Shown here in pieces: positions 38,771 through 64,000 of a stretch of 64,000 bases of DNA. The translations under genes and the position numbers were made by a program. Position 1 is the first letter of the stretch. Each line of letters opens with the position of its first letter. This DNA is from a virus, in IMG/VR virus record IMGVR_UViG_3300032245_001163; one strand, written 5' to 3'. The notes beneath the pieces were generated by a model. It was not told where the DNA came from. It did no database searches and saw only the letters and a list, made by a program, of their open reading frames with translations.

Positions 38771-38797
38771 AAAGGGGCAACAGCCCCTTTACTTTTT
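38771..38797 (+). terminator. Rho-independent terminator
   Basis: AAAGGGGC-aaca-GCCCCTTT hairpin followed by ACTTTTT, immediately after the structural module. Confidence 0.75.
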
Positions 38798-38816
38798 CCT
38801 GCTTTCCCTGTATAAT
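38788..38816 (+). promoter_or_regulatory. Sigma70-type promoter for the glycosylation/radical SAM operon
   Basis: TTTACT (38788-38793), 17 nt, TATAAT (38811-38816); ATG 5 nt later. Confidence 0.68.
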
Positions 38817-38821
38817 GCATT

Positions 38822-39130
38822 ATGAATACTGATGCCCTGGTTGCTCATGCACGAGCAAGATTTGATCACGCAGCCGCTCGCCGGGTGCTAAAAGAAAAAT
38901 ACGAAGCAAAAATGGTGTTTGCTCACGCTGGAGGAATGTGGCGTGCTGGGCCCGAATTGCTGACTGTGTTGTTGGCCTGCGCACAAGACAAAGACGTTGT
39001 GATACTGGACTTGTATGAAACTCCTATACAAATTATCGTAACAGAACTGTTTGCGCTGGCACACGAACGGTGGCAAGAACAAATGAATGCATGGCGAGTA
39101 GAATGGCAAGAACTAAATCAAAAACGTTGA
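38822..39130 (+). CDS. Hypothetical protein
   Basis: 102-aa ORF directly after the promoter; stop overlaps the next TTG start. Confidence 0.7.
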   Translation: MNTDALVAHARARFDHAAARRVLKEKYEAKMVFAHAGGMWRAGPELLTVLLACAQDKDVVILDLYETPIQIIVTELFALAHERWQEQMNAWRVEWQELNQKR

Positions 39131-39921
39131 GTCAAGGTGTCGTAATCTTTGCGTTCAACAATGAAGCAACAGATTACATTGCCATGGCTGCATGGTCAGC
39201 TAAGAATATTCGTAGACACCTAAACTTACCAGTGGCAGTGATCACAGACAATCCTGCAGCCGCCGCTCAACACCAGTTTGAACATATCATTGCTACAGTG
39301 GCTGACACTGGTGGGTCAAGATACTTTGCGGATTACAATGCCAATGTAACTTGGCACAATGCTGGTCGCATTAATGCCTATGAACTATCACCATTTGATC
39401 AAACTTTGGTACTAGATGCTGACTATGTAATAGCCAGTGATCGATTATTGGAAGTACTAACAATACCACAACAGTTTGCAGCTTTCAAGGACGGGTTTGA
39501 TCCCAGCAGTACGACCATGCTTGAAACATTTGGTGCGTATAATATGCCCATGTGGTGGGCCACCGTAATGATGTTCCGACGTGGCAACATCAGCCAATAC
39601 ATATTTGATAGTATGCAAATGATACGAGCCAACTGGCAACATTACCGGGACTTGTACGGCATTCACCAAAGCAACTATCGCAATGACTATGCACTGAGCA
39701 TTGCCCTGGGACTGGTAGCAGGTGCTGAACAATCAGTGCATGAGATATTCTTCCCCATGCTCAACGTCATGCCAGAACACGGATTGACTTGGGTGGAACA
39801 AGATCATTATGAAATTGAATACACTAACACCGAAGGTAGACGGAAAACTTTGAGTTGGGCTGGATTAGACTTTCATGCCATGTGTAAACGGCATTTGGAG
39901 GTGATAGTTGCAGCCCACTGA
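39127..39921 (+). CDS. GT-A/GT8-like glycosyltransferase
   Basis: GVVIFAFNN, YELSPFDQTLVLDADY (DxD), YRNDYALSIA; likely TTG start at 39127. Confidence 0.68.
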   Translation: MSQGVVIFAFNNEATDYIAMAAWSAKNIRRHLNLPVAVITDNPAAAAQHQFEHIIATVADTGGSRYFADYNANVTWHNAGRINAYELSPFDQTLVLDADYVIASDRLLEVLTIPQQFAAFKDGFDPSSTTMLETFGAYNMPMWWATVMMFRRGNISQYIFDSMQMIRANWQHYRDLYGIHQSNYRNDYALSIALGLVAGAEQSVHEIFFPMLNVMPEHGLTWVEQDHYEIEYTNTEGRRKTLSWAGLDFHAMCKRHLEVIVAAH

Positions 39922-40675
39922 CGAACAAGGTTATGTGATTGTTGCAGTCAACAGCGACACAGTTGACTATCAGTCTTGTGCTAGAACCTTGGCCAAGACC
40001 ATACGCTACTGGGATCCGTCTGCACGGATTTGCCTGGTCACAGACAGCCCTTACACTGATCCCTTGTACGATCACCACAGACAACTTGTGCCACAGACCA
40101 ATCCATTTGCCAACGATGCACAGTTGTTCAAGCTCACACCATTTCGTGAAACTATCAAACTGGAAGCAGATATGTGGATAGTGAGTCCAATTGTACACTG
40201 GTGGACACAGTTTAGACATAGAGATGTTGTAATATCTACTGGCTGTAGAGATTGGCAAGACAACATCAGCACAGCGAGAAACTACAGACGAGTGTTTGAT
40301 GTGAACCATTTGCCTGATGTGTACAATGCCATCACATACTGGCGGCGTAGCGAAACTGCCAAGGAATTCTTTGGCTGGGTCAGCAACATATTTGCCAACT
40401 GGACAGAGTTTAAGAAACTCATAAAGTTTCCTGATGATGTACCATCTACTGATTTAGTGTATGCCATGGCAGCAGAGATCATGGGACGAGACCGTGTGAC
40501 CTTGCCATTCAGCACATATCCAAAGATAGTGCATATGAAACGACACATAGCAGGCACAGCCACAGAATCTTGGCTCAATGAATTAGTGTGGGAATATCAG
40601 GACTTGCGATTGCGCATACAAACTGTAGCACAAACAGGTGCGTTTCATTACAATGTAAAACAGTGGCAAGCATGA
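39908..40675 (+). CDS. GT-A/GT8-like glycosyltransferase paralog
   Basis: GYVIVAVNS, LTPFRETIKLEADM, PSTDLVYAMA; paralogous layout to the upstream gene; GGAGG before TTG. Confidence 0.62.
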   Translation: MQPTDEQGYVIVAVNSDTVDYQSCARTLAKTIRYWDPSARICLVTDSPYTDPLYDHHRQLVPQTNPFANDAQLFKLTPFRETIKLEADMWIVSPIVHWWTQFRHRDVVISTGCRDWQDNISTARNYRRVFDVNHLPDVYNAITYWRRSETAKEFFGWVSNIFANWTEFKKLIKFPDDVPSTDLVYAMAAEIMGRDRVTLPFSTYPKIVHMKRHIAGTATESWLNELVWEYQDLRLRIQTVAQTGAFHYNVKQWQA

Positions 40676-41007
40676 CACCCGAAGAATTTTGGTCCGTACT
40701 ACACAACATGCCGGAACCTCAGCTGGTATTTTATCGTTTGTATCACGATGATCAAGGCAATCCACTATTCTATAGCATGGAGGATCAGCCTGGTACATAC
40801 ATTGAGATTGACCAAGCGACTTTTGCTCTTAACTCAATGAATGTGCGTGTACGCAATGGAAAATTAGTAGAAGTAGTTTGGCAAACAACGTTTAAACTGG
40901 TCCCTGGCAACTCTGGATCCCCTTGTCATCCTGACAATGTCGCTGTAATCGTTGCTGAGGACCAACCTCATACCAAATGGAGCAAACAAACATATGAATC
41001 AAATTGA
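40672..41007 (+). CDS. Hypothetical protein
   Basis: Likely start ATG 40672 (MTPEEFW..., ATGA overlap); in operon. Confidence 0.6.
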   Translation: MTPEEFWSVLHNMPEPQLVFYRLYHDDQGNPLFYSMEDQPGTYIEIDQATFALNSMNVRVRNGKLVEVVWQTTFKLVPGNSGSPCHPDNVAVIVAEDQPHTKWSKQTYESN

Positions 41008-41920
41008 CATTGCAGACCTAGACTGCATATACTTGAGTTATGACGAACCCGACAAAGAAGAGTTTTGGGTAAAAATTAAAAACATGGTACCCTGGGCTAC
41101 TAGAGTAGATGGTGTCAAAGGATCAGATGCAGCACACAAAGCCGCGGCTGCTGCCAGTACCACTGAACGATTTGTATTGATTGACGGCGACAACATTCCT
41201 GACGCTGAGTTTTTCAATCAAACACTGACATTTGCTACACCAGAGTGGGAACAGGCAGTGTTTCGTTGGCGTGCCAGAAATCACATCAACGGACTCATGT
41301 ACGGCAATGGTGGCTTGAGTTCATGGACACGTGAGTTTGTGATGAACATGCGCACACACGAAGCCACTGACGGACGTGCGGAAACCGAAGTAGAGTTTTG
41401 TTTTGATCCCTTGTACTGGGCCATGTACGACTGCTACTCAACCACATACCCCAATGGGAGTGCATTTCAAGCCTGGCGTGCCGGATTCCGTGAAGGTGTA
41501 AAGATGTGCTTGAACAAAGGTGCTCGGCCCACTGCGGAACAATTTCAACAACAGGTGCATCAGCGTAATCTGGATCATTTGACCATATGGCACAATATTG
41601 GTGCAGATGTCAACAACGGACAATGGGCCATGGCCGGTGCTAGACAGGGCACTTACATGACCATGCTCACAAACTGGGATCACAGACTGGTACAAGACTT
41701 TGATGCACTGGCTGAAATTTGGGAAACTGTAAAAGATTCAGATCCTAGACTGTTGGGAGGGCGTGTGGCAGATGATTTGCACAGTCAACTAGACCTGCCC
41801 ATGGCCATCTTTGAAGGTGAGCAAAGTAAGTTTTTTAAACAGCACTATCGTAGTAATTGGCACAACCGTGGTGTCATGGTTAGAGAGATTGACGTTATCA
41901 GACAGCAAGAAGGCTGGTAA
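40994..41920 (+). CDS. GT-A-fold glycosyltransferase-like protein
   Basis: DCIYLSYDEP, RVDGVKGSDAAHKAAA, FVLIDGDN (DxD), NGLMYGNGG, AWRAGFREGVK; likely start ATG 40994. Confidence 0.65.
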   Translation: MNQIDIADLDCIYLSYDEPDKEEFWVKIKNMVPWATRVDGVKGSDAAHKAAAAASTTERFVLIDGDNIPDAEFFNQTLTFATPEWEQAVFRWRARNHINGLMYGNGGLSSWTREFVMNMRTHEATDGRAETEVEFCFDPLYWAMYDCYSTTYPNGSAFQAWRAGFREGVKMCLNKGARPTAEQFQQQVHQRNLDHLTIWHNIGADVNNGQWAMAGARQGTYMTMLTNWDHRLVQDFDALAEIWETVKDSDPRLLGGRVADDLHSQLDLPMAIFEGEQSKFFKQHYRSNWHNRGVMVREIDVIRQQEGW

Positions 41921-42990
41921 TGTCATATTTTACGTTGCCAACTGGATACAAACATTCGTTGAATGCTCGACCCAGGGGTAGATTGTCATCTACACCAATT
42001 CTAAACAGTTGCAACGTGCCATATCACACTGTGGTGGTTGATTTTAATTCAAATTGTTTGATATGTGGATGTGATGGTTGGCTACCAATTCCTGTGGGAC
42101 AGGTACAGGATTTTGATTCACTTGAAGATGTATGGAACAGCCCGGTTGCAAAAATATTGCAACAAGATATTGATGCTAAAAAATTTACTTGGTGTGCAGT
42201 AGAACATTGTGGTATAAAACATCGTAATGTAAACCAAACAAGATACGAATTATCCATCAATATAGATGAAAGTTGTAATTTACACTGCCCTAGTTGTCGC
42301 AGGGAACCAATAATGCATTTGTCTGGACCAGTGGTAGACAAAAAAATTCAAGATGTTGAGCGCATATTACTGTGGTTGGAATCATTTGATCAGCCCATAC
42401 ACATTGTCCTTTCTGGCAATGGTGATCCATTGGCCAGTGCAATTATTCGTCCGCTGATAAAAAAATACAAACCAAAAAATAATCAAACTTTTAAATTGTT
42501 TACCAATGGGTTGTTAATAAAAAAACAATTGACTGATACGGAAATTCTTAAAAACATATCAGAATTTTCGATCAGTGTTGATGCTGGCAGTCAAGCGGTG
42601 TATGAAAATGTAAGGCGTGGTGGTAGTTGGGCAGTGTTATTAGAAAATTTTGAATATCTAACGTCCATTAACAAAAATAACTTGGTGACGTTGAATTTTG
42701 CGGTGCAATGCAACAATTTCAAGGACTTACAAAATTTTGTTGACATCTGTAACTATTATAATTTTAATGGGCAAATCCATGGACTTGATAATTGGGGCAC
42801 CTGGAATACTGATGATGTTTTAAACCCTGATGCATGGACAATCAAAAATGGAACATTTCAACAACATGATGTGTTACACAAAGGACATGTACAATATCAG
42901 GAGTGTGTGGAAGTAATCAACAAAATTATGTCTAATCAAAATCATAAAATTAGATTCTCGTTTGATGTAAAAAATAAAATTAAACAATGA
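41920..42990 (+). CDS. Radical SAM enzyme with N-terminal Cys-rich (twitch-like) domain
   Basis: CNLHCPSC motif, GNGDPL in place of GGEP, FTNG, ISVDAG; N-terminal C...CLICGC...CAVEHC. Confidence 0.85.
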   Translation: MSYFTLPTGYKHSLNARPRGRLSSTPILNSCNVPYHTVVVDFNSNCLICGCDGWLPIPVGQVQDFDSLEDVWNSPVAKILQQDIDAKKFTWCAVEHCGIKHRNVNQTRYELSINIDESCNLHCPSCRREPIMHLSGPVVDKKIQDVERILLWLESFDQPIHIVLSGNGDPLASAIIRPLIKKYKPKNNQTFKLFTNGLLIKKQLTDTEILKNISEFSISVDAGSQAVYENVRRGGSWAVLLENFEYLTSINKNNLVTLNFAVQCNNFKDLQNFVDICNYYNFNGQIHGLDNWGTWNTDDVLNPDAWTIKNGTFQQHDVLHKGHVQYQECVEVINKIMSNQNHKIRFSFDVKNKIKQ

Positions 42991-44390
42991 TACAAAACAA
43001 AGGTGATGAATCTGTAGGAAATAAAAGCCAGTTCTTGACTTCTGCTGAGCAGATGAAAGAACAATTAGGACCCGCGCTTTGTTTGGCCAAGTGGAAACAG
43101 GTCAGTCTGCACCTCACCACAGGCATGAACAACTCATGCTACCATCCGCCACTGCACCCAATCAATCCCCAAGAGATTGCCATAGATGTATCAGCATTGC
43201 ACAATACACAGTGGAAGAAAACTGCACGTCAGATGATGTTATCAGGCGAAAAACCTGGCGAATGTCAGTACTGCTGGAACATGGAGAACGAAGGCAAGCT
43301 CAGTGACAGGCACTATCGTTCAGGCGAGCCCTGGGCCGCAGTGGACTTTGAACAAATAAAAAATAGCACAGGAGAAGAAAATGTTATCCCCAGTTATGTT
43401 GAAGTTAATTTTAATCACGCTTGTAATCTTAAGTGTAGTTATTGTAGCCCTCAGTTTTCGAGCTCATGGGCAGACGAGGTCGCACGACTGGGCGCTTTTC
43501 CTACTAGCAGTCCACACAACTCTCCTGATCATTTTATGGGACAGCGTAGACCGATACCAGCCCGAGAGTCCAACCCTTATGTTGACGCCTTCTGGTCCTG
43601 GTGGCCAAGCCTGTACCCTCACCTAGAACATTTCCGTATGACTGGTGGTGAGCCACTGCTGGATAAGAACACATATCGTGTGTTTGACTATGTGTTAGAG
43701 AATCCCAATCCTCGCCTGCACTTAAATGTTACCAGCAACTTTAGTGTAGATGAAAAGTCATGGCAAAAGTATTTGAGTTATGTAAAGCAAATATGTGATG
43801 GACGCATTGAACACTTCATGCAGTATGTAAGTCTAGATGGCTGGGGCGAACAAGCCGAATACATGCGCAATGGTCTGGACTTTAATCTGCTGTGGGACCG
43901 GGTCAACCAATTTCTTACAGAAGTTCCTAATTATTCTAGCCTGACGTTTATCATCACAATGAACAACTTGAGTGTGACCAGCTTAGATAAGTTATTTGCT
44001 GGCATTCTAGGACTGCGTAAAGTTTACAGCAATACCTATCAACGTGTGTGGTTTGACACACCTGTGTTGCGTGAACCTGCTTGGCAGAGCCTGCAGATTT
44101 TGCCTGAAAGTTATGCTGAAAAACTGGAATGGTTGTGGGCATGGATGGTGCGACAGATTGAAACAGAAGAAGCACCGTTCAAAGGATTCAAAGACTATGA
44201 ACTGCATAGATTGGATCGAGACATTGCTTGGATGCGGTCTGCACAGTTAACTGACCACACTCAAGCAAAAGCAGACTTTTATCGTTTCTTCAGTGAACAT
44301 GATCGACGTCGCGGCACAGACTTTTTAAAGACATTTCCAGAGATGAAGTCATGGTGGGAGGAGTGTGCGTACCATGCTAGGCAATCGTAA
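42987..44390 (+). CDS. Radical SAM enzyme with N-terminal twitch/SPASM-like domain
   Basis: CLAKW...SCYHP...CQYCW; CNLKCSYC; TGGEPL. Confidence 0.88.
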   Translation: MIQNKGDESVGNKSQFLTSAEQMKEQLGPALCLAKWKQVSLHLTTGMNNSCYHPPLHPINPQEIAIDVSALHNTQWKKTARQMMLSGEKPGECQYCWNMENEGKLSDRHYRSGEPWAAVDFEQIKNSTGEENVIPSYVEVNFNHACNLKCSYCSPQFSSSWADEVARLGAFPTSSPHNSPDHFMGQRRPIPARESNPYVDAFWSWWPSLYPHLEHFRMTGGEPLLDKNTYRVFDYVLENPNPRLHLNVTSNFSVDEKSWQKYLSYVKQICDGRIEHFMQYVSLDGWGEQAEYMRNGLDFNLLWDRVNQFLTEVPNYSSLTFIITMNNLSVTSLDKLFAGILGLRKVYSNTYQRVWFDTPVLREPAWQSLQILPESYAEKLEWLWAWMVRQIETEEAPFKGFKDYELHRLDRDIAWMRSAQLTDHTQAKADFYRFFSEHDRRRGTDFLKTFPEMKSWWEECAYHARQS

Positions 44391-45477
44391 AATCATTGTG
44401 GATGAGTGGGCTGAAGTATGGGACTTGCTCAAGACTCATGCGGATGGCAGTTTCTGGCAGTGGTCAGATGTCGAGCTTGATCCTAACAACGTGTATATTG
44501 TTGGACGTGTGATACTAAAAGACAACTGGACAGAGATAACAGAGTGGGCACGACAGTATCCTGGACGCATTGTGTTTTCAAATCCTGCAGAAGGCAGTGA
44601 AACCATACTGTTGCAACTCACACGCTTGCGAATCAAAGAACAAGTTCGTCGCGGCGACATCTTGTTGCTGACATCAGGCGACTTGGAGCCAGGCTGGCAC
44701 TACTGCAAAACAGACTGCTACTTCTCCAACATTGTAGAATACTTGGAAAACTTACGTGCGCATGAGTCTCATCCGCAGGTGTATCATAGAACCAACAAGC
44801 CCTACGACTTCCTGTTCCTAAACGGACGACTGCGTCCACATCGCAAGTACTTGATAGATGCCATGCGTGATCGACGGTTGTTGGATCGAGCACTATGGAC
44901 CAATCTCAATGACCGTGTAGAAATGGCCTGGAGCAGTCGACTACAAACTAGCCAGTCCGAACCCGTTAGATTGTTGCCCCCACAGTACGAAATTGATCGT
45001 GCGTTACCTAACATGGACAATGTACCAACAGGATTTGTAAAGCATCATTTGTTTGGTAATACCTGGGGCGATGCTGAAATCAATCCTGCGGCCTACATTG
45101 ATACCTATTTCAGTGTGATTACAGAAACTATCTACGACTACCCATATACATTTCGTACAGAGAAAATTTGGAAGCCCATGATCATGGGGCATCCATTTGT
45201 TGTAGCAGCCAACCGCGGATACTATAAAGATTTGCATAATGCGGGATTTCAAACATTTGGACATTTAATAGATGAGAGCTTTGATCAAATTGATGATCCC
45301 TCTGATCGTGCCAATAGAATAGTAGACACAGTGGCGGATATATGTTATAATGGTGCTGCCAGTTTCTTGGAGAGTGCTAGATCTGTTTGTAAATACAACT
45401 ATCAACAACTTCGCGAACACAATCGTCGCGAACGTGCAGAACTCCCAGAACGTTTGGCCCAATACATCAATGAATGA
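44374..45477 (+). CDS. GT10-like ('TEK' motif) glycosyltransferase-like protein
   Basis: FLFLNGRLRPHR, YFSVITET...FRTEKIWKPMIMGHPF, GFQTF..LIDESFD; ATG 44374 after GGAGGAG. Confidence 0.58.
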   Translation: MLGNRKIIVDEWAEVWDLLKTHADGSFWQWSDVELDPNNVYIVGRVILKDNWTEITEWARQYPGRIVFSNPAEGSETILLQLTRLRIKEQVRRGDILLLTSGDLEPGWHYCKTDCYFSNIVEYLENLRAHESHPQVYHRTNKPYDFLFLNGRLRPHRKYLIDAMRDRRLLDRALWTNLNDRVEMAWSSRLQTSQSEPVRLLPPQYEIDRALPNMDNVPTGFVKHHLFGNTWGDAEINPAAYIDTYFSVITETIYDYPYTFRTEKIWKPMIMGHPFVVAANRGYYKDLHNAGFQTFGHLIDESFDQIDDPSDRANRIVDTVADICYNGAASFLESARSVCKYNYQQLREHNRRERAELPERLAQYINE

Positions 45478-55445: not shown

Positions 55446-55543
55446 AATGGCTAAGAAGAATGTGGGACAGAATTACACTGGAAATACGCTATCGTAAAAA
55501 ATTACGTGAACTTCGCAAACGAGATCCATTTATCTACAAATGA
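55442..55543 (+). CDS. 33-aa basic peptide preceding the carbamoyltransferase (not in ORF track)
   Basis: MKWLRRMWDRITLEIRYRKKLRELRKRDPFIYK; AAGGAG RBS; ATGA overlaps at both ends. Confidence 0.78.
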   Translation: MKWLRRMWDRITLEIRYRKKLRELRKRDPFIYK

Positions 55544-57027: not shown

Positions 57028-57251
57028 AACCAGCAAGAGAACACCTGAACGATTCGCAAATGGGATATTGGACACATCTGGCTCACAGTTTCCGACAAAG
57101 CAACAGGCTAGTGATTATTGCTGTCAAAAGTTATATACATGGCGTGTTGCCTTGGTTCTATGCCAGCGAAGGTCCTGTGGGCGTGTTCAAAATTTACAGA
57201 GAAATACGCCAACAGCGGCACATTAGAAAAATACTAGACAGTCAGAGATAA
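57024..57251 (+). CDS. Small protein, DUF6356-like
   Basis: REHL...MGYWTHL...IHGVLPWFY pattern; ATGA overlap with the carbamoyltransferase. Confidence 0.55.
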   Translation: MKPAREHLNDSQMGYWTHLAHSFRQSNRLVIIAVKSYIHGVLPWFYASEGPVGVFKIYREIRQQRHIRKILDSQR

Positions 57252-58282: not shown

Positions 58283-59420
58283 TGATGTCCTTGATCAATC
58301 TATTTAAACGGTCAGCTTTGTTGCTGACAAATAACTGTTGGTTGTGTTCTATGTCTGCACGACACAGTTTGAACAGTTGCGGCAAATCAAATCTAGCAAA
58401 ATAAATGGCTCGAGTCAGCGCACGCCAGCGTTTTGTAGCATCAATTTCCAAATCATAATGATTGTCCAATATTGAATCAAACACTCGATATCCCAAATCT
58501 CGTAGTACTTGTAAACTGCCAGCAGGCCCTGCTATAAAAAACAGTTGTCCATGTTTGATGGGCTTGAACGTTTTTTCAGTTAGAAACGTACCTCCGCCAA
58601 TGTCAAAGTGTGTTTCCATTACAATGTTGCAATAACTGTTGACATGATATTTTGGCACCAACGTGCTGTGATCGTTGCGTTGATCAAAATCCAACTCGTC
58701 GCTGATATACGGAGCTGACCTTAAAAACTGTTCAGTTCTTGTACGCAATCCAGAGATAGTATCAATCTCAATGGGATTGTCATTGTCCAATTCCCCAGTT
58801 TCGCAATAACTCCAATAGGAATTGTCCAGTATTCCGTTGTGTCGCAAATCTGTCATAGCGGTGGCACGCCATGATTTGTGTAATCTGTTGAGCACAGTAA
58901 AGTCGAGTTGTCTTGGTTCATGGTGGATCTTCAGTGGACGACTTGCACGGTTGCGCTGATAGTACCAAAGCTCAAAGTCTGCAAAGTACACAAAATTTTC
59001 TAAATTTTTAGCAGCGGTGTTGCCACTGACAAATACATAGCAAGTATTGTGCAGTCCATGCTCACTGCACAAACTGTCTAGCCGTTGTTTAATTTCTGCA
59101 GGATTGTCGCCTTCGTGATAATAAAACAACAACTTAAAGTCTCCAAGACCTAATCGATCACGCACTCGAACAGGCAGCAGATCAATGTAGTCAATGGAGA
59201 AATCAAAAAATCCTATGCCAATGGGATAAAATGTATTTGGAGGAAATTGTTCTTCAATGCTGTAAACAGTTAATGGTACACCATGTTCCATACAATACTC
59301 TTGTAATCGCAAAGGCACTGTGTAAGGATAATGACGATCAAAGTCGCGGCTCTGTGTCTGAGCTAATGCAGGATATATTTTGCCTTTAACTATTTGGTCC
59401 GCTATTAAATTTAATGTCAT
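58269..59420 (-). CDS. GT10-like ('TEK' motif) glycosyltransferase-like protein
   Basis: FTVLNR...WR, YCNIVMET...FLTEKTFKPIKHGQLFFIAG, LRDLGYRVFD. Confidence 0.58.
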   Translation of the reverse strand: MTLNLIADQIVKGKIYPALAQTQSRDFDRHYPYTVPLRLQEYCMEHGVPLTVYSIEEQFPPNTFYPIGIGFFDFSIDYIDLLPVRVRDRLGLGDFKLLFYYHEGDNPAEIKQRLDSLCSEHGLHNTCYVFVSGNTAAKNLENFVYFADFELWYYQRNRASRPLKIHHEPRQLDFTVLNRLHKSWRATAMTDLRHNGILDNSYWSYCETGELDNDNPIEIDTISGLRTRTEQFLRSAPYISDELDFDQRNDHSTLVPKYHVNSYCNIVMETHFDIGGGTFLTEKTFKPIKHGQLFFIAGPAGSLQVLRDLGYRVFDSILDNHYDLEIDATKRWRALTRAIYFARFDLPQLFKLCRADIEHNQQLFVSNKADRLNRLIKDINEHH

Positions 59421-60564
59421 TTAACATGTCCTTTAGCTCTTGCCACAGAATCTGTTCAAAGCCACCATTATAAAAATGATTCCAGTTGTGTTGGATAATT
59501 TCCTGGGCAGAATCAAATATAGCTTGACGATATTCTCCCAAGTCATCCAGCAGTTTTAGTGTGTGTGCAATCTTCTCTATACGTTTGGAATCATCGGGCT
59601 CATCATCATAACTTTCGTCCCACAAATCGCCAAATGTTTTGAATCCATAACTACGCAAATATTTCAAACTGCCCTGGGTGCCCACTATGATAAATGGCAT
59701 GCCCATGGCAATGGGTTTGAAAGTCTTTTCAGTTAAATGATGTCTGCGTCCTGTGGCCACAGTCTCAGTAACCAAGTATAACAAACTTTCAGCACTCTGG
59801 TCAAACAAACTGAGCCAACAACTGTGCATGGGATGATCAGTTTCTCCTGCAAAGTTTAACGGCAATGGCTGTTCGGCAAACACAGCGCCAATGTCTGAAT
59901 ACTTCTTTTTAAGTGGTGCAATAGCGTCATGAATTGAAATATTTTCTGCAGGACACACACTGGGGCATGATATGTGATTGTCAGTCATGCCCAGTTTGAA
60001 TATCCAATACAGCATTTCTAATCTGTGCTGACGTTCTCCAGCAACAATACGATTGGGTGCTAGGAAAGTCTTGCTGATAGTTCTTTGTTGCCAAGGAGTA
60101 ATCAAAAAAGTTCGATCGTAGCCGCGATACCAATCCAATGCCGCCCATCCATGAAAGAAATAATAATAACTTTCCCAGTTATATTTTTTACACACAGCAT
60201 CGACTGCATCACTGTCTCGTTCGCTGGTAATCAGTGCACCTATTTTTATGTCTTTTAAAGATTTTGCATATCCAGCATCGATTGCTATTCGATTTACTTG
60301 ATTTCGCAAATCAATATCACGATGTATATCACTGTTGTGTTGTAGCATCTGATCAAATGTGGGCAGATGTACGTTCAAATGAATAGGCTCTTGGTCCCAC
60401 AATAGTGTATAATTGTGTTCAACTAGGTCATCGCTGCCATAATTAACTAAGCTATCAGGATCTGTTCGACCAAATGGATCACACCACCATAGTCGCACAC
60501 CTGGATGATGTTGACGAAGCCAAGGCCAGAATGTGTTGTTGTAAATCTCATCTATTCTAATCAT
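59386..60564 (-). CDS. GT10-like ('TEK' motif) glycosyltransferase-like protein
   Basis: FLAPNR...HR, LYLVTET...HLTEKTFKPIAMGMPFIIVG, LRSYGFKTFGDLWDESYD. Confidence 0.6.
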   Translation of the reverse strand: MIRIDEIYNNTFWPWLRQHHPGVRLWWCDPFGRTDPDSLVNYGSDDLVEHNYTLLWDQEPIHLNVHLPTFDQMLQHNSDIHRDIDLRNQVNRIAIDAGYAKSLKDIKIGALITSERDSDAVDAVCKKYNWESYYYFFHGWAALDWYRGYDRTFLITPWQQRTISKTFLAPNRIVAGERQHRLEMLYWIFKLGMTDNHISCPSVCPAENISIHDAIAPLKKKYSDIGAVFAEQPLPLNFAGETDHPMHSCWLSLFDQSAESLLYLVTETVATGRRHHLTEKTFKPIAMGMPFIIVGTQGSLKYLRSYGFKTFGDLWDESYDDEPDDSKRIEKIAHTLKLLDDLGEYRQAIFDSAQEIIQHNWNHFYNGGFEQILWQELKDMLNDIKFNSGPNS

Positions 60565-62569
60565 GTTTGACGTATTTTATTTCAGTGATGGGCGTAAGCC
60601 AAATTTGTTTCCACACGAGAGATCAGTGGATTCATTCCAGCATGCGCAGAAGTTGAGTCGCACACGATTTTTCTGGATTGTGCATTACTTAGCGGATTAC
60701 ACAGACTGGGACTTTCTTTGGGAACCGGTGCCCTGGCAAGCTGATCAACGTCATGCATGGGCAAGCCAATGGCAACCAGATTCAGGCACATACCTTGTAC
60801 CCAGAGCAGGCTATGAACATACAAACTATCATGCGGATCGAGTCATAACAAGACTGCCTAGTCGCAATGGTTGGCGCATACCTCCAAACATAGATGCAGA
60901 TACGTTTGACTTTTCCTGGCACCCAAGACCTGATGAACACTATCAGCATCACTTTCCCACACAATGGCAGACCGCAGGCGGACCTGTGTACAATTCGGGT
61001 GCTGACACAATTAAAATGGAAACGTGTCAACATGCAACAGCACGGCCCACCAAAAAGCCGTGGACTGTGCCTGCAGGAGTTGAGCCAGTGGATCAGTCAT
61101 GGCACCCAAATCCGTTTGATCCGCCTTACGTGTATCAGTTTGGCACACAGCATCAACGCACAGGTGGTCCAGTATACACAGTGTCTGGTGCAACAGAAGT
61201 AAAATATGTTGATCAAATACGTGCCACAACCAACAGAGTGGCCACTGCTGTATATGAAATAGATCACATGTGTGGGTCAGCAGTGCAAATACCCGGTACC
61301 ACAAAGACTGTGCGATACTTTGACAACTACAGAGACACATTGATACGCATTGCTAAGAGCATTGGCGATCAACATGAGTTTGTGTGGGTGTGCTCAAGCA
61401 TTTGTGATTACACGGGCTTTGACTTTTCCTGGCATCCCGAACAATGGCAGGCCACCATGCTACATGTGTTCCGATCCAACGATCAAAAGTTTGGTGATAC
61501 ATTCTTCATGCATGTACCTACGTTTGCTGTGAGAGCAGAAAAGAAGGAACTGCTGGAATGGTATGATGTGAACTTTGTTGACATCAGTGTGCCACGCAAT
61601 GCCATGCCTGTGATTGTGCATGGCAACGACAGTCAAGTTGATGCTGTAAAGAACACTGAGTGGGCAGGACCCTTGGCTGTGTTTACCAACCACGATTATG
61701 TTCCCGGCAACGTGTTCAATCATGTACCACTGTGGCGCGAACAAACCAAAGCCATTGTGCCCATCAGTGATGGTGCTGGCACAGTTGTAGTACCACGCAC
61801 CGCTGTGCCTTATATAAAGACACAGTTGTATGATTATCCTTACATAGATCGAAGCCAACGTGTGCTGCAAGATCCGCCCTTGGACATTGTGTTCATCAGC
61901 AATGGTGAAATAAATGCCGACATTTACTTTGAACATTTGGAATACACAGCCCACGACGCAAATCATAAGAATCTCATGCATCATGTGTCTGGCGTGAATG
62001 GACGTGTGGCAGCATATCAAGCGGCTGCTAGACAGAGTACTACGCCTTGGTTCTTTGCTGTGTTTGCTAAACTGGAAGTCACTAGAGATTTTGACTGGAC
62101 ATGGCAACCTGATCGCATGCAACAGGCCAAGCACTATATCTTTCATGCACACAATCCTGTGAACGGATTGGTATATGGACACCAGGCCATGATTGCTTAT
62201 AACAAGCAGTTGGTGTTGGAGAATACTGGGCAAGGATTAGACTTTACACTGGACCAACCACATGAAGTTGTGCCCATTGTGTCAGGCACAGCCATGTATC
62301 ATGATTCAGACTGGATGTGCTGGCGTACTGCATTCCGTGAAGTGCTCAAACTCAAAGCAAGTTTGCCTGATGTGGAAAGCGAACACAGACTCAACCGGTG
62401 GCTCACTGTTGATACTACAGAGGGTGGTTGGAGTCAGAAAGGCGCTGAAGACGGCGTGGAGTATTATGACTCAGTTGGTGGCGACTTTGCTGCACTAAAG
62501 AAAAGTTATGAGTGGGACTGGTTGGCCACGTATGCGTTTATGAAACGCAGTCTAACACCGAATCAATAA
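60563..62569 (+). CDS. Multi-repeat glycosyltransferase-like protein
   Basis: Repeated FDFSWHP-type modules; C-terminal domain (DIVFISNGE, GVNGRVAAYQAAA, NGLVYG, WRTAFRE..KL) paralogous to 40994..41920. Confidence 0.6.
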   Translation: MFDVFYFSDGRKPNLFPHERSVDSFQHAQKLSRTRFFWIVHYLADYTDWDFLWEPVPWQADQRHAWASQWQPDSGTYLVPRAGYEHTNYHADRVITRLPSRNGWRIPPNIDADTFDFSWHPRPDEHYQHHFPTQWQTAGGPVYNSGADTIKMETCQHATARPTKKPWTVPAGVEPVDQSWHPNPFDPPYVYQFGTQHQRTGGPVYTVSGATEVKYVDQIRATTNRVATAVYEIDHMCGSAVQIPGTTKTVRYFDNYRDTLIRIAKSIGDQHEFVWVCSSICDYTGFDFSWHPEQWQATMLHVFRSNDQKFGDTFFMHVPTFAVRAEKKELLEWYDVNFVDISVPRNAMPVIVHGNDSQVDAVKNTEWAGPLAVFTNHDYVPGNVFNHVPLWREQTKAIVPISDGAGTVVVPRTAVPYIKTQLYDYPYIDRSQRVLQDPPLDIVFISNGEINADIYFEHLEYTAHDANHKNLMHHVSGVNGRVAAYQAAARQSTTPWFFAVFAKLEVTRDFDWTWQPDRMQQAKHYIFHAHNPVNGLVYGHQAMIAYNKQLVLENTGQGLDFTLDQPHEVVPIVSGTAMYHDSDWMCWRTAFREVLKLKASLPDVESEHRLNRWLTVDTTEGGWSQKGAEDGVEYYDSVGGDFAALKKSYEWDWLATYAFMKRSLTPNQ

Positions 62570-63632
62570 CATACTCAACTTCCAAGTCTGTTAGTTCAGG
62601 ATAGATAGGTAGACTCAAACATCTACGTGCCAGACTGCTGCCAGCACTCAGCAAGTCTGGTGCGGGATAGTGTTGGTATGCTGGCAACTCATGCATGGGT
62701 GTTGCATAGTGTACTTTGGTTTCAATCTTGCGCAAGGCAAGGTTGCGTTGAACAATGTCTCGATTGTCTACTGTGATCACAAACTTGTGAAAGCAATGTG
62801 TTTCAAAGTTTGAATCATCAATCAAACAAGTGATGTCTGGATGTTTCTTCAACATCTCCATCCAGTGCTGTGCAATGGTACGTCTACGTTGCTGCCATTT
62901 ATCAATGTGGCGTGTTTTTACTAACATCTGCGCACAGTCTGTTTCGCTCATTCTGCTGTTGGTACCTATCTCAGCATGGTTGGTACGTTTACCATTACTG
63001 ATCCAGTTTCTAGCAAACTCCATCAAGTCGCGATTGGCAGTAACTATGGCACCACCATTGCCATAGTTGGCTAGATTTTTTGTGGGATCAAAACTGATGG
63101 CACAATCACCCACACGTTGACATTTGTTGCTGAGCCAATGCTGTGCGCCATCTTCTATGATGGGGTGAGTCAATGACCACACACTTTGTTTCATTTCGTT
63201 GAGTGCTTGCCCATACAAGCCTATAGCACAAATGGCCTGGATATCTGTGCTGTGTTTAAGTTTGGTCATGTCTATGACACCATATCGGTCAGTGTCTACG
63301 ATGTGCAAGTTCCAGCCTGCTCGCACAAAGGCATTCAGCGTGGCAGGATAAGTCATTGTAGGCACGGCCACAGTGGGTGTGTCGGGACGACCTGCTTGCA
63401 ACAACATCCACTCAGCAATGATTTCCAATGCTTGTGTACCTGAGTGGCAAGTCACAGCATAGGGTTGATGGTTGCGGCGAGCCAACCAATCCTCAAACTC
63501 ATAGGTATAGTTGCCATTCATGAGTTGTCCTGAACGCAACACTGTGTCTGTAACGTCCAGGATCTCAGTGCGGAGGTTGTTATACTGTTTTCGGATTCCA
63601 GTAAACGGAATTGTTAAGCCAGTTGTAGTAAT
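62538..63632 (-). CDS. DegT/DnrJ/EryC1/StrS family PLP-dependent sugar aminotransferase
   Basis: SGTQALE, TYPAT, IIEDGAQ, SFDPTKNL..YGNGGAI (PLP lysine), GTNSRM, LSLPIYPEL; frame extends upstream of 63542 through IPFTGIRKQY to an ATT at 63632 (start uncertain). Confidence 0.88.
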   Translation of the reverse strand: MTTTGLTIPFTGIRKQYNNLRTEILDVTDTVLRSGQLMNGNYTYEFEDWLARRNHQPYAVTCHSGTQALEIIAEWMLLQAGRPDTPTVAVPTMTYPATLNAFVRAGWNLHIVDTDRYGVIDMTKLKHSTDIQAICAIGLYGQALNEMKQSVWSLTHPIIEDGAQHWLSNKCQRVGDCAISFDPTKNLANYGNGGAIVTANRDLMEFARNWISNGKRTNHAEIGTNSRMSETDCAQMLVKTRHIDKWQQRRRTIAQHWMEMLKKHPDITCLIDDSNFETHCFHKFVITVDNRDIVQRNLALRKIETKVHYATPMHELPAYQHYPAPDLLSAGSSLARRCLSLPIYPELTDLEVEYVIDSVLDCVS

Positions 63633-64000
63633 TTTGGAATCCTTCTTCTACATCTACTTTGGGGTCAAAACTCAAAATAGTTTTAGCCCTGTCGATATTT
63701 AATGCACCGCGGCTGGGAAAGTCTGCATCCTTGTCGCGAACTTCAATAGTACCTCGACCCACAATCTTCACAATCATTTCTGCAGCTTCTAGTAGACTCA
63801 CACTGTGTGATTTAGTAATGTTGAATGTCATGTTGCGACACATAATACGTGTAGCGGCAGCAACAATACCATCAGCAGCATCATCCACATAGGTAAAGTC
63901 TAGTGTTTCGTTTGCTCCATTAACTCGGAGCACTCCGCCGCGCATTGCTGTGAGCATGAATTTGGCAACGACTCGGTCTTCAACATCAAGTGGCCCATAA
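63580..64000 (-). CDS. NAD-dependent NDP-sugar epimerase/dehydratase, C-terminal part (runs off the right edge)
   Basis: YGPLDVEDRVVAKF, LDFTYVDDAADGI, TFNIT, AKTILSFDPKVDVEEG. Confidence 0.85.
   Translation of the reverse strand, partial: YGPLDVEDRVVAKFMLTAMRGGVLRVNGANETLDFTYVDDAADGIVAAATRIMCRNMTFNITKSHSVSLLEAAEMIVKIVGRGTIEVRDKDADFPSRGALNIDRAKTILSFDPKVDVEEGFQNYYNWLNNSVYWNPKTV

Follow-up and report, generated by a model that had tools for sequence, protein, structure and literature searches.

Introduction

Glycosylation is virus-encoded in chloroviruses and mimiviruses. Among phages, virion glycosylation has been described for mycobacteriophages (Freeman et al. 2023, as cited in PMC12619734 and PMC12801897), and published work also deals with the varied glycans that phage DNA can carry (Pyle et al. 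2024, as cited in PMC12619734). T4-like pelagimyophages and cyanomyophages possess a host recognition cluster (HRC), a type of fibre-proximal island in T4-like aquatic phages that is rich in radical SAM cassettes and glycosyltransferases (GTs), chiefly of family GT8, and for which the authors favoured modification of the host O-chain (Zaragoza-Solas et al. 2020; PMC7029224). In the cultured cyanophage S-SCSM2R, a gene trio similar to one studied here was named 'antibiotic synthesis genes' (PMC12801897). Such regions have been noted in the literature without biochemistry. Here we analysed an island in a 64,000-nucleotide stretch of DNA from an uncultured giant lake phage (IMG/VR record IMGVR_UViG_3300032245_001163; hereafter the window). 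It is a real, widely conserved block for sugar building, editing and transfer, and it sits close to the fibre genes, in the 'host recognition' region of T4-like freshwater jumbo phages that form a family with genomes of ~320-365 kb. Its most likely product is predicted to be a glycan bearing amino, guanidino and carbamoyl groups.

Results

The island (38822-64000) holds 24 large open reading frames in the ORF listing, the majority overlapping or abutting, and one of 75 codons (Table 1). This ~25-kb block lies on the 3' side of the tail genes, and the upstream order runs from a baseplate wedge gene (16185-19661) through a 5173-aa ORF and the fibre genes u1-u3 to the island, in agreement with the ~25 tightly overlapping genes that a preliminary description had placed after the baseplate and tail module. 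The GC content is even over the whole window. A hydrophobic span is absent from every island protein (top Kyte-Doolittle 19-residue mean, 1.51), which suggests that they are entirely soluble, and Pfam scans of these proteins returned no exporter and no resistance family.

Table 1. Coordinates of the genes and signals discussed, in window positions.
Feature	Position	Strand	Description
rs0	5345-6931	-	radical SAM outside island, beside SbcCD-like genes; NF033640 264 bits
Terminator-like hairpin and extended -10-like TGTATAAT	38775-38821	+	read from sequence
g01	38822-39130	+	102 aa; orthologs in loci L001, L092
g02	39070-39921	+	candidate GT-A; DxD-like motif
g03	39908-40675	+	candidate GT-A; DxD-like motif
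g04	40588-41007	+	139 aa; orthologs in L001, L092, L093
g05	40952-41920	+	322 aa; candidate GT-A-like
g06	41920-42990	+	divergent radical SAM; N-terminal SPASM/twitch-like domain
g07	42987-44390	+	N-twitch radical SAM; NF033640 320.8 bits
g08	44365-45477	+	GT-B paralog; TEKxxKP motif
g09	45350-46813	+	N-twitch radical SAM; NF033640 287 bits
g10	46794-48056	+	N-twitch radical SAM; NF033640 390 bits
g11	48053-49432	+	N-twitch radical SAM; NF033640 220 bits
g12	49429-50634	+	N-twitch radical SAM; NF033640 338 bits
g13	50621-51607	+	GT-B paralog; in variable cassette g13-g14-g15
g14	51604-52209	+	201 aa; candidate SGNH/GDSL esterase or acyltransferase, motif only
g15	52206-53153	+	GDP-mannose 3,5-epimerase-like SDR
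g16	53150-54427	+	N-twitch radical SAM; NF033640 265.5 bits; 3' end overlaps g17 start
g17	54420-55445	+	341 aa; conserved family, so far only uncharacterised phage proteins
g18	55540-57027	+	O-carbamoyltransferase, NodU/NolO/TobZ family
75-aa ORF	57024-57251	+	ATG overlaps g18 stop codon (ATGA)
g19	57242-58282	-	amidinotransferase, AGAT/StrB1/HsvA/SxtG family
Late-promoter-like TTAAATA box	58300-58307	-	24 nt upstream of g19 ATG, within g20 3' end
g20	58269-59420	-	GT-B paralog; fucosyltransferase-like TEKxFKP motif
g21	59386-60564	-	GT-B paralog; fucosyltransferase-like TEKxFKP motif
g22	60563-62569	+	668 aa; degenerate N-terminal 'D-x-S-W-x-P' modules and g05-like C-terminal domain
g23	62538-63542	-	DegT/DnrJ/EryC1/StrS sugar aminotransferase; PF01041 E 1.9e-54
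g24	63580-64000	-	C-terminal part of NDP-sugar SDR (epimerase or dehydratase); clipped by window edge

Gene order is kept, with phage genes adjoining, in ~80 independent IMG/VR phage contigs, one of them part of a genome of 364 kb that has direct repeats at its termini, and because of this conservation the island is more than a chance arrangement. Synteny directly after the fibre genes extends to marine relatives, and the variable part is the cassette g13-g14-g15. In five near-complete relatives the N-twitch radical SAM genes number 11-19 per genome and the GT-B family members 5-14. In these five genomes we found no cyclitol synthase (neither myo-inositol-1-phosphate synthase, MIPS, nor a member of the DHQ/DOI-synthase family), no sugar nucleotidyltransferase (NTP_transferase), no lipid-carrier priming enzyme (Bac_transf, Glycos_transf_4), no Wzx flippase and, with a working positive control, no ThyA-family dCMP/dUMP hydroxymethylase; a Tet/JBP search gave 0 matches with an uninformative control. 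The island itself encodes no cyclitol-forming enzyme. In relatives, ThyX lies just past g24. Gene sets of this kind are also present on chromosomes labelled Bdellovibrionales, where an N-twitch radical SAM gene adjoins an amidinotransferase or a g05-like gene, and in one locus with this label MIPS stands two genes from the N-twitch radical SAM.

All seven radical SAM genes counted in the preliminary description (g06, g07, g09, g10, g11, g12 and g16) were recovered, and each keeps the CxxxCxxC motif. Six of them score 220-390 bits against the NCBIfam model NF033640 (N_Twi_rSAM, 'twitch domain-containing radical SAM protein'; cut-off, 170 bits), and all six keep four N-terminal cysteines with conserved spacing, as in g07 (Cys32/51/93/96 and C146xxxCxxC). 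The divergent g06 reaches 36.9 bits, under the cut-off, with PF04055 at E 2e-11, a SPASM match at residues 31-97 and its CxxxCxxC at residue 119. Four consecutive paralogs with intact Cys motifs, g09-g12 (45350-50634), have orthologs in 57-70 loci, and g16 in 70. A further gene, rs0, is the eighth radical SAM gene of the window and the seventh above the NF033640 cut-off. Full-text literature searches found no paper on this family, and to our knowledge none of its members has an assigned reaction.

The sugar-modifying and group-transfer families named beforehand (a DegT aminotransferase, a carbamoyltransferase, an amidinotransferase and two NDP-sugar SDR 'epimerases') all held. g15 is a clear GDP-mannose 3,5-epimerase homolog (PDB 2c59, E 1.5e-96 over residues 3-315; PF01370, E 8e-44), with GDP-L-galactose or GDP-L-gulose as the expected product; it adjoins the GT-B paralog g13 in the variable cassette, which would suit GDP-L-sugar donors for fucosyltransferase-like enzymes. 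The other SDR gene, g24, may encode an epimerase or a dehydratase: the fragment matches PF01370 weakly, and a full ortholog (L017:2676-3638) matches it at E 3e-42, with 6zl6 (2e-25) and dTDP-glucose 4,6-dehydratases (~1e-21) nearest in the PDB. g18 contains both Pfam domains of its family (PF16861, E 3e-48; PF02543, E 3e-35) and matches phrog_1601 (E 6e-90); against the NodU equivalog model it scores 126.7 bits for a cut-off of 1000. g19 had no Pfam match and was found by phmmer against the PDB, with AGAT (E 4e-15), StrB1 (2e-12), HsvA and SxtG among matches ranging to 2.5e-9; its catalytic Cys and His align ('GGISCCT' with 'GGFHCWT', 'GHGDAVF' with 'HIDATF'). It is the most conserved island gene: in the 80 best-matching of 145 related viral-contig stretches its identity is 82-95%. 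For g23, below the cut-off of the PseC model, QdtB (3e-35), Gln:scyllo-inositol transaminase (2e-34), DesV and WbpE score about equally, so its regiochemistry is not assignable. A sugar or glycan with amino, guanidino and carbamoyl groups is the most economical reading of this set.

Eight genes are GT-like (g02, g03, g05, g08, g13, g20, g21 and g22), as the preliminary description had estimated, and half of these calls gained structural backing. g08, g13, g20 and g21 form a single paralog family, whose fold we modelled on g21; its members share an invariant E...EK..K motif and carry a TEK motif of fucosyltransferase-like type. The AlphaFold model (pLDDT 90) adopts a GT-B fold; all listed Foldseek matches are GT or GT-like at a borderline E of ~3e-3, and VIA gave T4 beta-GT (Z 11.0; rmsd 4.8, 274 aligned), DNA-bound T4 alpha-GT (10.9), a PBCV GT (3oy2; 9.7) and alpha-1,3-FucT (9.6). 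On this model the four are GT-B glycosyltransferases; the nearest named ESM clusters, GT10 at 0.80, are a lead only. The other four are putative GTs at motif level. g02 and g03 are paralogs (E 3e-6; 'LDADY / LEADM'; both phrog_1903) that follow the fibre genes in marine relatives too (L095, L096), and hhalign against E. coli WaaJ/WaaO aligned the DxD motif alone (probability 0.3%). g05, of a family of at least 8000 unannotated clusters, has a sub-threshold GT2 match (PF13641, 16.7 bits; cut-off 27) and matches the g22 C-terminus (E 9e-8); a g05-like gene lies directly 5' of an N-twitch radical SAM in L106 and L107 (Bdellovibrionales label) and L108 (Oligoflexia label). g22, whose orthologs have 0-10 tandem modules of ~65 aa, had no match in Pfam or the PDB.

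The SGNH-like call on g14 stands on the GDS motif of its N-terminus (MKQIYVCGDSF); Pfam, NCBIfam and the PDB gave nothing. The g17 model (pLDDT 87) shows a four-helix bundle set into a cyclophilin-like barrel (VIA against cyclophilins, an equivocal Z of 7-8; no PDB match by Foldseek). Its BFVD matches are without exception uncharacterised phage proteins, one from Atu_ph07, and the family exceeds 5000 clusters in metagenomes. Neither g01 nor g04 matched a family in Pfam or PHROG. Of the 90 viral-contig loci L001-L090, only three have the 75-aa ORF, at 77-84% identity.

Two kinds of transcription signal were read from the DNA. A terminator-like hairpin follows the fibre gene u3, and TGTATAAT comes 5 nt ahead of the g01 ATG; the layout is identical in L092, with compensatory stem changes, and we predict a transcriptional boundary between structural operon and island. 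Upstream of the front 18 kb (g01-g18) stand this hairpin and a sigma-70-like extended -10 but no late box, which would suit early or middle expression and hence also host-directed roles. Before g19, a TTAAATA box is kept in 57 of the 61 distinct upstream regions of orthologs, and the corresponding number for each other island gene is 0-1; within the island, this conserved late-promoter-like box occurs at the amidinotransferase only, a new finding. The box lies within the g20 coding sequence, where it requires a TTA codon (22% of Leu codons) and then an AAT codon (53% of Asn codons), and it recurs at a similar distance before the structural genes at 7865, 16185 and 35984.

Discussion

Our leading but tentative reading, held at a little under even confidence, is that the island is a phage-encoded soluble module that tailors host NDP-sugars in the cytoplasm into a decorated glycan, with a virion protein as the likeliest acceptor. 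We start from the observed family assignments, GT-B fold, conservation and absence of carrier-lipid, cyclitol and hydroxymethyl-base genes, and infer the substrates and sequence of the steps, the reactions of the radical SAM enzymes and the identity of the acceptor. Sugars would be drawn from host NDP-sugar pools, since the phage has no nucleotidyltransferase of its own. g15 would convert GDP-mannose to GDP-L-galactose or GDP-L-gulose, g24 (SDR) and g23 (DegT) would produce first a keto sugar and from it an amino sugar, g19 would move an amidino group from arginine to an amine to yield a guanidino group, and g18 would O-carbamoylate a hydroxyl with carbamoyl phosphate and ATP. The seven radical SAM enzymes may edit sugar carbons in redox-neutral or oxidative reactions (epimerisation, dehydrogenation or dehydration, for example), and the four GT-B enzymes, perhaps with g02, g03, g05 and g22, would join the units onto the acceptor, most likely fibres or other surface proteins of the virion. 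The particle would then bear an unusual cationic, carbamoylated glycan.

In weighing this virion reading we counted for it the fit between the expected g15 product and the fucosyltransferase-like GT-B enzymes, the synteny behind the fibre genes, the high gene numbers in relatives, the solubility of the island proteins, the published fibre-proximal islands and the likeness of the g19 box to those before structural genes. We counted against it the position of g01-g18 behind a sigma-70-like -10 and not a late box, the T4 DNA glucosyltransferases as top structural neighbours of the GT-B model, the preference of the HRC authors for host O-chain modification, the reliance of g14 and four of the eight putative GTs on motifs, and the weakness of adjacency to Ser/Thr-rich fibre genes as evidence.

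An unlikely alternative that still deserves weight is that soluble enzymes at the cytoplasmic face remodel lipid-linked O-antigen, capsule or LPS-core intermediates of the host and so alter the surface of the infected cell, which might block superinfection or keep progeny from being trapped on debris. This is the published reading for the GT-rich clusters of pelagimyophages (PMC7029224); many LPS GTs are soluble GT-B enzymes, and the structures matched by the g21 model include WaaG, WaaB, PimA and WbnH. The promoter before g01 would suit early expression, and the Bdellovibrionales gene sets agree. However, with priming phosphoglycosyltransferase and Wzx flippase absent from the five near-complete relatives, envelope remodelling would depend entirely on the host, whose machinery would have to accept strongly modified units; an outlay of 25 kb, with more clusters at other places in the genome, is large for a lytic phage, and the conserved box before g19 better fits the timing of virion assembly. 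The chance that a bacterial LPS or capsule locus was fused to phage DNA by misassembly or mis-binning is practically nil. Some contigs bearing bacterial MAG labels (Haliscomenobacter, 'Verrucomicrobia', 'Rickettsiales') do contain close copies, but those contigs hold u2 and u3 beside the island, and the synteny of the ~80 contigs, the terminally repeated genome and the even GC refute this origin, on the comparison that the preliminary description had proposed.

We consider it improbable that the product is a diffusible, aminoglycoside-like guanidino/carbamoyl pseudo-oligosaccharide acting on host or competitors. StrB1/AGAT-type, DegT, TobZ/NodU-type and twitch radical SAM enzymes are aminoglycoside-pathway classes, g23 is close to inosose transaminase, MIPS neighbours an N-twitch radical SAM in the one Bdellovibrionales-labelled locus, and the S-SCSM2R authors chose an antibiotic label. 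Against this, both cyclitol-synthase families are missing from the relatives, the island lacks a membrane-spanning protein, an exporter and a resistance family, and 5-14 GT-B copies per genome point to a polymer or multi-site glycosylation and not to one small product. Slightly more improbable again is DNA hypermodification, in which the GT-B enzymes would glycosylate phage DNA as T4 alpha- and beta-GT do and the others would decorate the DNA-linked sugars. The best g21 structural matches, the published DNA glycans and the nearby ThyX would fit. Yet a ThyA-family hydroxymethylase is missing from the five near-complete relatives, no acceptor for DNA glycosylation is known where hydroxymethyl bases are lacking, the Z margin of the T4 enzymes over other GT-B proteins is only ~1.3, and the conserved TEK motif is of fucosyltransferase type. 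The T4 DNA-modifying GTs are early genes, unlike g19 with its late-type box.

The observation behind the preliminary description is confirmed and its interpretation partly supported: nearly all family calls were right in the gene-by-gene HMM and structure searches, with four of the eight GT-like genes and the SGNH assignment staying at motif level, and its order of oxidation, transamination, amidination and carbamoylation is putative. Its aminoglycoside-type label holds for the enzyme families. The island shares these with the streptidine branch (StsC-type aminotransferase, then StrB1) and TobZ, and with them the logic of converting an amine to a guanidine and O-carbamoylating a sugar hydroxyl, but it lacks a cyclitol synthase, a phosphotransferase, an exporter and a resistance gene. 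g19 matches StrB1 at E 2e-12 only, over three short stretches; the substrate is probably an NDP-sugar or glycan and not inosamine phosphate.

With GT10 alpha-1,3-fucosyltransferases and T4 DNA glucosyltransferases the island GT-B family shares the two-Rossmann fold at ~9-12% identity, with no Pfam GT10 match. GT10 enzymes bind the GDP-sugar in the C-terminal domain, which is where the TEK motif of the island proteins lies. Six island genes and rs0 share with NF033640 the auxiliary-cluster cysteines ahead of the radical SAM core, and g06 falls below the family cut-off. Mycobacteriophages, chloroviruses and mimiviruses use soluble viral GTs, as here, to decorate their own structural proteins in the cytoplasm, with few GTs and ordinary sugar-nucleotide enzymes; the chlorovirus GT 3oy2 is among the top matches of the g21 model. 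None of these systems is known to possess a radical SAM array or to pair an amidinotransferase with a carbamoyltransferase.

In the T4-like Synechococcus phage S-SCSM2R (PQ898602.1), which also encodes a radical SAM and a DegT-type enzyme, an amidinotransferase with 29% identity to g19 sits amid GT and sugar genes, but the neighbours differ (KdsA/KdsB, 2OG oxygenases), and neither a radical SAM array nor a carbamoyltransferase is annotated in the surrounding 25 kb. The HRC resembles the island in being large, GT-rich and placed in the structural region beside a giant VrlC-type protein and tail fibres, with radical SAM cassettes gained and lost between relatives; it was described without enzyme-level analysis (PMC7029224). 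The island differs in belonging to ~320-365-kb freshwater jumbo phages and in a core that is conserved rather than hypervariable, comprising the N-twitch radical SAMs, g17, the carbamoyl- and amidinotransferase, the GT-B paralogs and the DegT/SDR pair.

Genomic context and conservation of the island

In the left part of the window we found phage genes for virion structural proteins, SbcCD-like nucleases and two baseplate components, a hub and a wedge protein. The wedge protein (1158 aa) shares 30-35% identity with its counterparts in Atu_ph07, in PA5oct and in the Serratia phage BF / Erwinia pEa_SNUABM jumbo phages. The first 2200 aa of the 5173-aa ORF are ~28% identical to PA5oct-type virion structural proteins. 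Three fibre-like genes (u1-u3) come after this ORF, and u3 is 28% Ser+Thr. The relatives found in IMG/VR measure 317-364 kb and one of them has direct terminal repeats. Based on the jumbo-phage-like structural genes and on the size of these relatives, we assign the window to an uncultured jumbo phage. From 38822 to the window end we found 24 large ORFs (g01 to g24, in order), mostly with overlaps of a few bases, plus one 75-codon ORF, in agreement with the ~25 tightly overlapping genes of the preliminary description. The positions of individual features are collected in the table.

Features mapped in the window
Feature	Position	Strand	Remarks
rs0, radical SAM gene, 528 aa	5345-6931	-	NF033640, 264.4 bits; ~150-aa N-terminal extension
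5173-aa ORF, single	19661-35182	+	Between the baseplate wedge and fibre genes
Terminator-like hairpin after u3, then TGTATAAT	38775-38821		TGTATAAT lies 5 nt before the g01 ATG; parts u3 from the island
75-aa ORF	57024-57251	+	ATG overlaps the g18 stop (ATGA); end overlaps the g19 end
TTAAATA late-promoter-like box	58300-58307	-	Inside the 3' end of g20, 24 nt before the g19 ATG

A search of the IMG/VR viral contigs with g19 retrieved 145 related stretches, and the best 80 of the 145 are 82-95% identical to g19. When all the island proteins were compared by tblastn with 90 of the related loci, a single gene order emerged throughout: the radical SAM array with g08, then g16-g17-g18, then g19-g20-g21 on the opposite strand, then g22 and finally g23-g24 on the opposite strand. 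The genes g13-g14-g15, g11 and g06 are present in some relatives and missing from others. In marine relatives, g02-g03-g05 and radical SAM genes are kept directly 3' of the fibre genes. A few small genes past g24, just beyond the end of the window, the relatives encode the flavin-dependent thymidylate synthase ThyX (L017:943-1623; L057:2333-3025). The island is real, conserved and abundant, and this synteny, with phage fibre genes adjoining, ruled out the misassembled bacterial locus that the preliminary description had considered. Against GenBank phages, megablast of the island and tblastn of g21 gave no match, and tblastn of g10 gave only distant ones (RsoM2USA, Vibrio phages K566/K567 and nt-1); the K566 and K567 genomes each contain four places that match g10.

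Two contigs filed under a Haliscomenobacter MAG (L092 and L093; NZ_JBBAKG010000001.1 and NZ_JBBAKG010000003.1, 183 and 148 kb) also carry the fibre genes and the island, with g10 orthologs 80-82% identical to that of the window. Since u2 and u3 adjoin the island on the MAG-filed contigs, we consider that these and the other contigs of this kind belong to the same phage family; the Haliscomenobacter filing would be an artefact of binning or else hint at a Bacteroidota host.

The radical SAM array

NF033640 (NCBIfam N_Twi_rSAM) is a family with an auxiliary-cluster (twitch) domain N-terminal to the radical SAM core. All seven radical SAM paralogs proposed for the island were confirmed, and six of them exceed the whole-protein cut-off of 170 bits for this family (g07, 320.8; g09, 287.4; g10, 389.8; g11, 220.2; g12, 338.3; g16, 265.5). 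The seventh, g06, scored 36.9 bits and is not a member; it is a divergent radical SAM protein with a SPASM match at its N-terminus. A seventh NF033640 member, rs0, adjoins the SbcC/SbcD-like nuclease genes, far away from the island. One CxxxCxxC motif is found in each of the seven members and is intact in g06 too. Upstream of it, all seven members have four Cys with a C-x18-C-x41-C-x2-C-like spacing (residues 32/51/93/96 in g07). The N-twitch paralogs as a whole are too divergent for a joint alignment to serve as a pattern query. Each of the five near-complete genomes of relatives encodes 11-19 NF033640 proteins above the cut-off. Our literature searches returned no paper characterising N-twitch radical SAM enzymes, and we know of no reaction for the family.

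N-twitch genes are also present in chromosomal MAG loci labelled Bdellovibrionales or Oligoflexia, Acidobacteriota and Cytophagales. A Bdellovibrionales MAG (L102:2904-10197) combines two N-twitch-like genes with a third radical SAM-like gene, a B12 radical SAM gene and a g19-like amidinotransferase, and in another bacterial locus (L111:6052-10215) a myo-inositol-1-phosphate synthase gene lies two genes upstream of the N-twitch gene. A g05-like gene is located directly upstream of the radical SAM gene in three bacterial loci, and genes for GT2s, a sugar C-methyltransferase, YdjC, an SDR and an AT3-SGNH acyltransferase were among the further neighbours. With such neighbours, the N-twitch family keeps carbohydrate-tailoring company in bacteria too.

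Glycosyltransferase-like genes

The ~8 glycosyltransferase (GT)-like candidates fall into three groups: g08, g13, g20 and g21; g02 and g03; and g05 with the C-terminal domain of g22. The members of the first group are paralogs that share an invariant E...(T)EK..K(P) block. We modelled g21 with AlphaFold (54 homologs; pLDDT 90, pTM 0.88) and compared the model with known structures using VIA; GT-B-fold glycosyltransferases took all of the top 31 places and made up nearly all of the 50 matches listed. The best match was the T4 beta-GT (1c3j; Z 11.0, rmsd 4.8, 274 aligned residues), together with the T4 alpha-GT (Z 10.9), a chlorovirus GT (9.7) and the H. pylori alpha-1,3-FucT (5zoi; 9.6). Congruently, every Foldseek match was a glycosyltransferase or GT-like, at a borderline E of ~3e-3. 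On this model the fold of g21 is GT-B, with two Rossmann-like domains matched over the whole chain.

The nearest named ESM clusters for the GT-B paralogs were GT10, at 0.80, which we treat only as a lead, and a TEK-type motif is common to these paralogs and GT10. The GT10 family PF00852 gave no match, none of g08, g13, g20 and g21 matched any Pfam family even at E 10, and a PDB profile search with the GT-B family found nothing; at most, these proteins are GT10-like in their working, and we do not file them as GT10 members. Their family numbers 5-14 copies per genome in the five near-complete relatives. In g02 and g03 we observed a DxD-like motif only; hhalign against the E. coli GT8 proteins WaaJ/WaaO aligned the DxD alone, with a probability of 0.3%. 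For g05 and the g22 C-terminus there was a single GT2 match (PF13641), under its cut-off. PDB sequence searches with g02, g03, g05 and g22 gave no match, nor did a PDB profile of the g22/g05 family. Of the proposed ~8 GT-like genes, the four GT-B paralogs are therefore confirmed by family fold, and g02, g03, g05 and g22 are candidate GT-A enzymes (GT2/GT8) at motif level.

Group-transfer and sugar-nucleotide enzymes

The amidinotransferase, carbamoyltransferase, DegT aminotransferase and two NDP-sugar epimerase candidates anticipated from the sequence were all recovered. In phmmer searches of PDB sequences, g19 matched L-arginine:glycine amidinotransferase (AGAT; 4e-15), StrB1 (2e-12), HsvA (1e-10) and SxtG (2.5e-9) over three stretches at the N-terminus, the middle and the C-terminus, while no Pfam family was reached at E 0.01 or better. 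Its Cys segment GGISCCT aligns with GGFHCWT and its His segment GHGDAVF with HIDATF; the aligned Cys and His are candidates for two residues of the catalytic Cys-His-Asp triad of amidinotransferases. In some relatives the interval that separates the g24 and g23 orthologs holds a further amidinotransferase gene (L017:3635-4654; also L011), a paralog with 28-29% identity to g19.

The g18 protein is a two-domain carbamoyltransferase of the NodU/TobZ type, with Carbam_trans_N and Carbam_trans_C at 122.6 and 163.9 bits (Pfam cut-offs 24 and 27) and a match to phrog_1601 at 6e-90; it fails the NodU equivalog model (126.7 bits vs a cut-off of 1000). The g23 protein belongs to the DegT/DnrJ/EryC1/StrS family (PF01041, 185.7 bits vs a cut-off of 19.8, residues 2-329) and meets no equivalog model (PseC, 128.9 vs 423.5). 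Its similarity to PDB entries is spread about evenly over QdtB, a glutamine:scyllo-inositol transaminase, DesV and WbpE and so does not assign the position that it would aminate.

Both epimerase candidates, g15 and g24, are NDP-sugar SDRs. The full-length match of g15 to GDP-mannose 3,5-epimerase (2c59; E 1.5e-96, 327 bits, residues 3-315; next-best family, 1e-27) identifies it by sequence as this enzyme, through which the phage could make GDP-L-galactose or GDP-L-gulose. Both are natural look-alikes of GDP-L-fucose, and as predicted products of g15 they would suit GT-B enzymes with a fucosyltransferase-type motif; g15 shares a variable cassette with the GT-B paralog g13. By similarity, a full-length ortholog of g24 falls between UDP-GlcA 4-epimerase-like enzymes and dTDP-glucose 4,6-dehydratases.

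Other island proteins

Pfam, NCBIfam and PHROGs yielded nothing useful for g01, g02, g04, g08, g13, g14, g17, g20, g21 and g22. The protein g14 is an SGNH-like candidate at motif level: a GDS at residues 8-10 corresponds to block I, the sole block seen of I-V, and no Pfam, NCBIfam or PDB match was found. The strongly conserved g17 (>5000 sequence clusters) gave a confident model with no Foldseek match in the PDB, in which a weak cyclophilin-like barrel (Z 7-8) carries an inserted helical bundle. Its structural relatives in BFVD are all uncharacterised phage proteins, among them A0A2L0UZJ4 of the cultured Agrobacterium phage Atu_ph07; the ESM Atlas offered no usable match.

The g22 orthologs are 533 to 1784 aa long and contain 0-10 tandem modules of ~65 aa (for example L074:2395-7749 and L043:3413-7783) with the signature D-[YFW]-S-W-x-P-D-P-G-x-P-P-Y-I-Y; the L074 ortholog has five modules with an identical motif at an exact 64-aa spacing. 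To judge from the sequences, these repeats look like a variable binding array. A LAG1 match, the only one among 28 orthologs scanned singly, was discarded as spurious. The 75-aa ORF was found in only three related loci (L017, L022 and L054), at 77-84% identity.

Transcription signals

A TAAATA box lies 14-29 nt before the ATG of the structural genes at 7865, 15764, 16185 and 35984, and TATAAATA, the complete T4 late consensus, has a single copy, which precedes u2. Within the island, a TAAATA-type box precedes g19 only. TTAAATA is present 24-27 nt upstream of the g19 orthologs in 57 of 61 distinct upstream regions, compared with 0-1 of up to 57 orthologous regions for each of the other island genes. 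In the g20 frame the box needs TTA-AAT, where TTA makes up 22% of the Leu codons of g20 and AAT 53% of its Asn codons. As this codon pair is kept while nearby synonymous sites vary, the comparison suggests that the DNA motif itself is under selection, in sequences that are related and so do not allow a formal test.

The layout between u3 and g01 recurs at L092:530-598 with TGTACAAT, 5-7 nt before the g01 ATG, and with compensatory changes in the stem, which suggests that g01 is leaderless or near-leaderless. A generic promoter/terminator scan gave matches no more frequent than in shuffled sequence. From these signals we infer that g01-g18 may be a unit of their own, perhaps leaderless and perhaps of early or middle timing, and that the g19 amidinotransferase is probably made late, also or only.

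Absent pathways and the target of the island

The preliminary description had likened the island to an aminoglycoside-type cluster. The enzyme families were found, but membership in an aminocyclitol/aminoglycoside cluster was rejected: no island protein matched a cyclitol-forming enzyme in Pfam, and PF07994 (myo-inositol-1-phosphate synthase) and PF01761 (DHQ/DOI-synthase) are absent from the five near-complete relatives, in searches whose positive controls worked, so the pathway is not an aminocyclitol one. NTP_transferase is likewise absent from these five genomes, and host sugar nucleotides must therefore be the feedstock. We propose that the island would act as a soluble glycan-tailoring factory fed by host NDP-sugars. 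That its role is sugar or glycan tailoring as such seems to us highly probable.

The choice of acceptor is less certain. Among the candidates we rank the virion first, a reading that we hold tentatively. For the host envelope, which we regard as a rather unlikely target, there is a precedent in the host recognition cluster of pelagimyophages and cyanomyophages, interpreted as host O-chain modification (PMC7029224). In the five near-complete relatives of our phage, both kinds of priming phosphoglycosyltransferase (PF02397, PF00953) and Wzx (PF01943) are absent, so the phage would bring no carrier-lipid pathway with it. A hydrophobic span is missing from every island protein as well, and on both grounds we rejected a Wzx/Wzy- or ABC-type surface polysaccharide locus.

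DNA as the target, brought to mind by the T4 DNA glucosyltransferases as top structural matches of g21, is very improbable in our estimation. The ThyA-family dCMP/dUMP hydroxymethylase (PF00303) is absent from the five relatives (the control was positive in 10/14 genomes), which removes the T4 route to a glycosylatable base, and a T4-type DNA glucosylation system was rejected despite those matches; a Tet/JBP search of the relatives gave no match, with an uninformative control. To a free metabolite as the product we give a similarly slight chance.

Discussion

Taken at its most specific, the tailoring reading would make the N-twitch array a set of iterative sugar editors. Working with a late, arginine-dependent amidinotransferase and the carbamoyltransferase, they would assemble a carbamoylated glycan with guanidino groups on the virion proteins themselves, a proposal that we put forward as speculative and rather doubtful. 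If true, viral post-translational glycosylation would gain a new class; we know of no glycoconjugate with such guanidino/carbamoyl chemistry, and guanidino sugars are, to our knowledge, otherwise confined to antibiotics. With the product on the virion, phage-host recognition or defence evasion would gain a new layer, and sugar chemistry (guanidino sugars, radical sugar editing) a new source; a product reaching the host surface or DNA would change the reading of host recognition clusters. The phage family is very common in lake metagenomes, to judge from the >5000 g17 clusters and the widespread g19 matches, and spends tens of kilobases on an enzyme set dominated by N-twitch radical SAMs. The GDP-mannose 3,5-epimerase and the SDR/DegT/amidino/carbamoyl quartet are each open to in vitro assay.

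Our literature searches found no paper that connects an amidinotransferase with a carbamoyltransferase in a phage. The cultured cyanophage S-SCSM2R is reported to carry "antibiotic synthesis genes" for a DegT-type enzyme, an amidinotransferase and a radical SAM protein (PMC12801897). The amidinotransferase of S-SCSM2R, which has KdsA/KdsB, GTs and 2OG oxygenases as neighbours, shares 29% identity with g19. The island region corresponds to the host recognition cluster of pelagimyophages and cyanomyophages, in which numerous GTs and mobile radical SAM cassettes are gathered in a large island adjacent to VrlC and the fibres (PMC7029224). The island is best read as a phage glycosylation island of this host recognition cluster sort, and not as an aminoglycoside-type cluster by membership.
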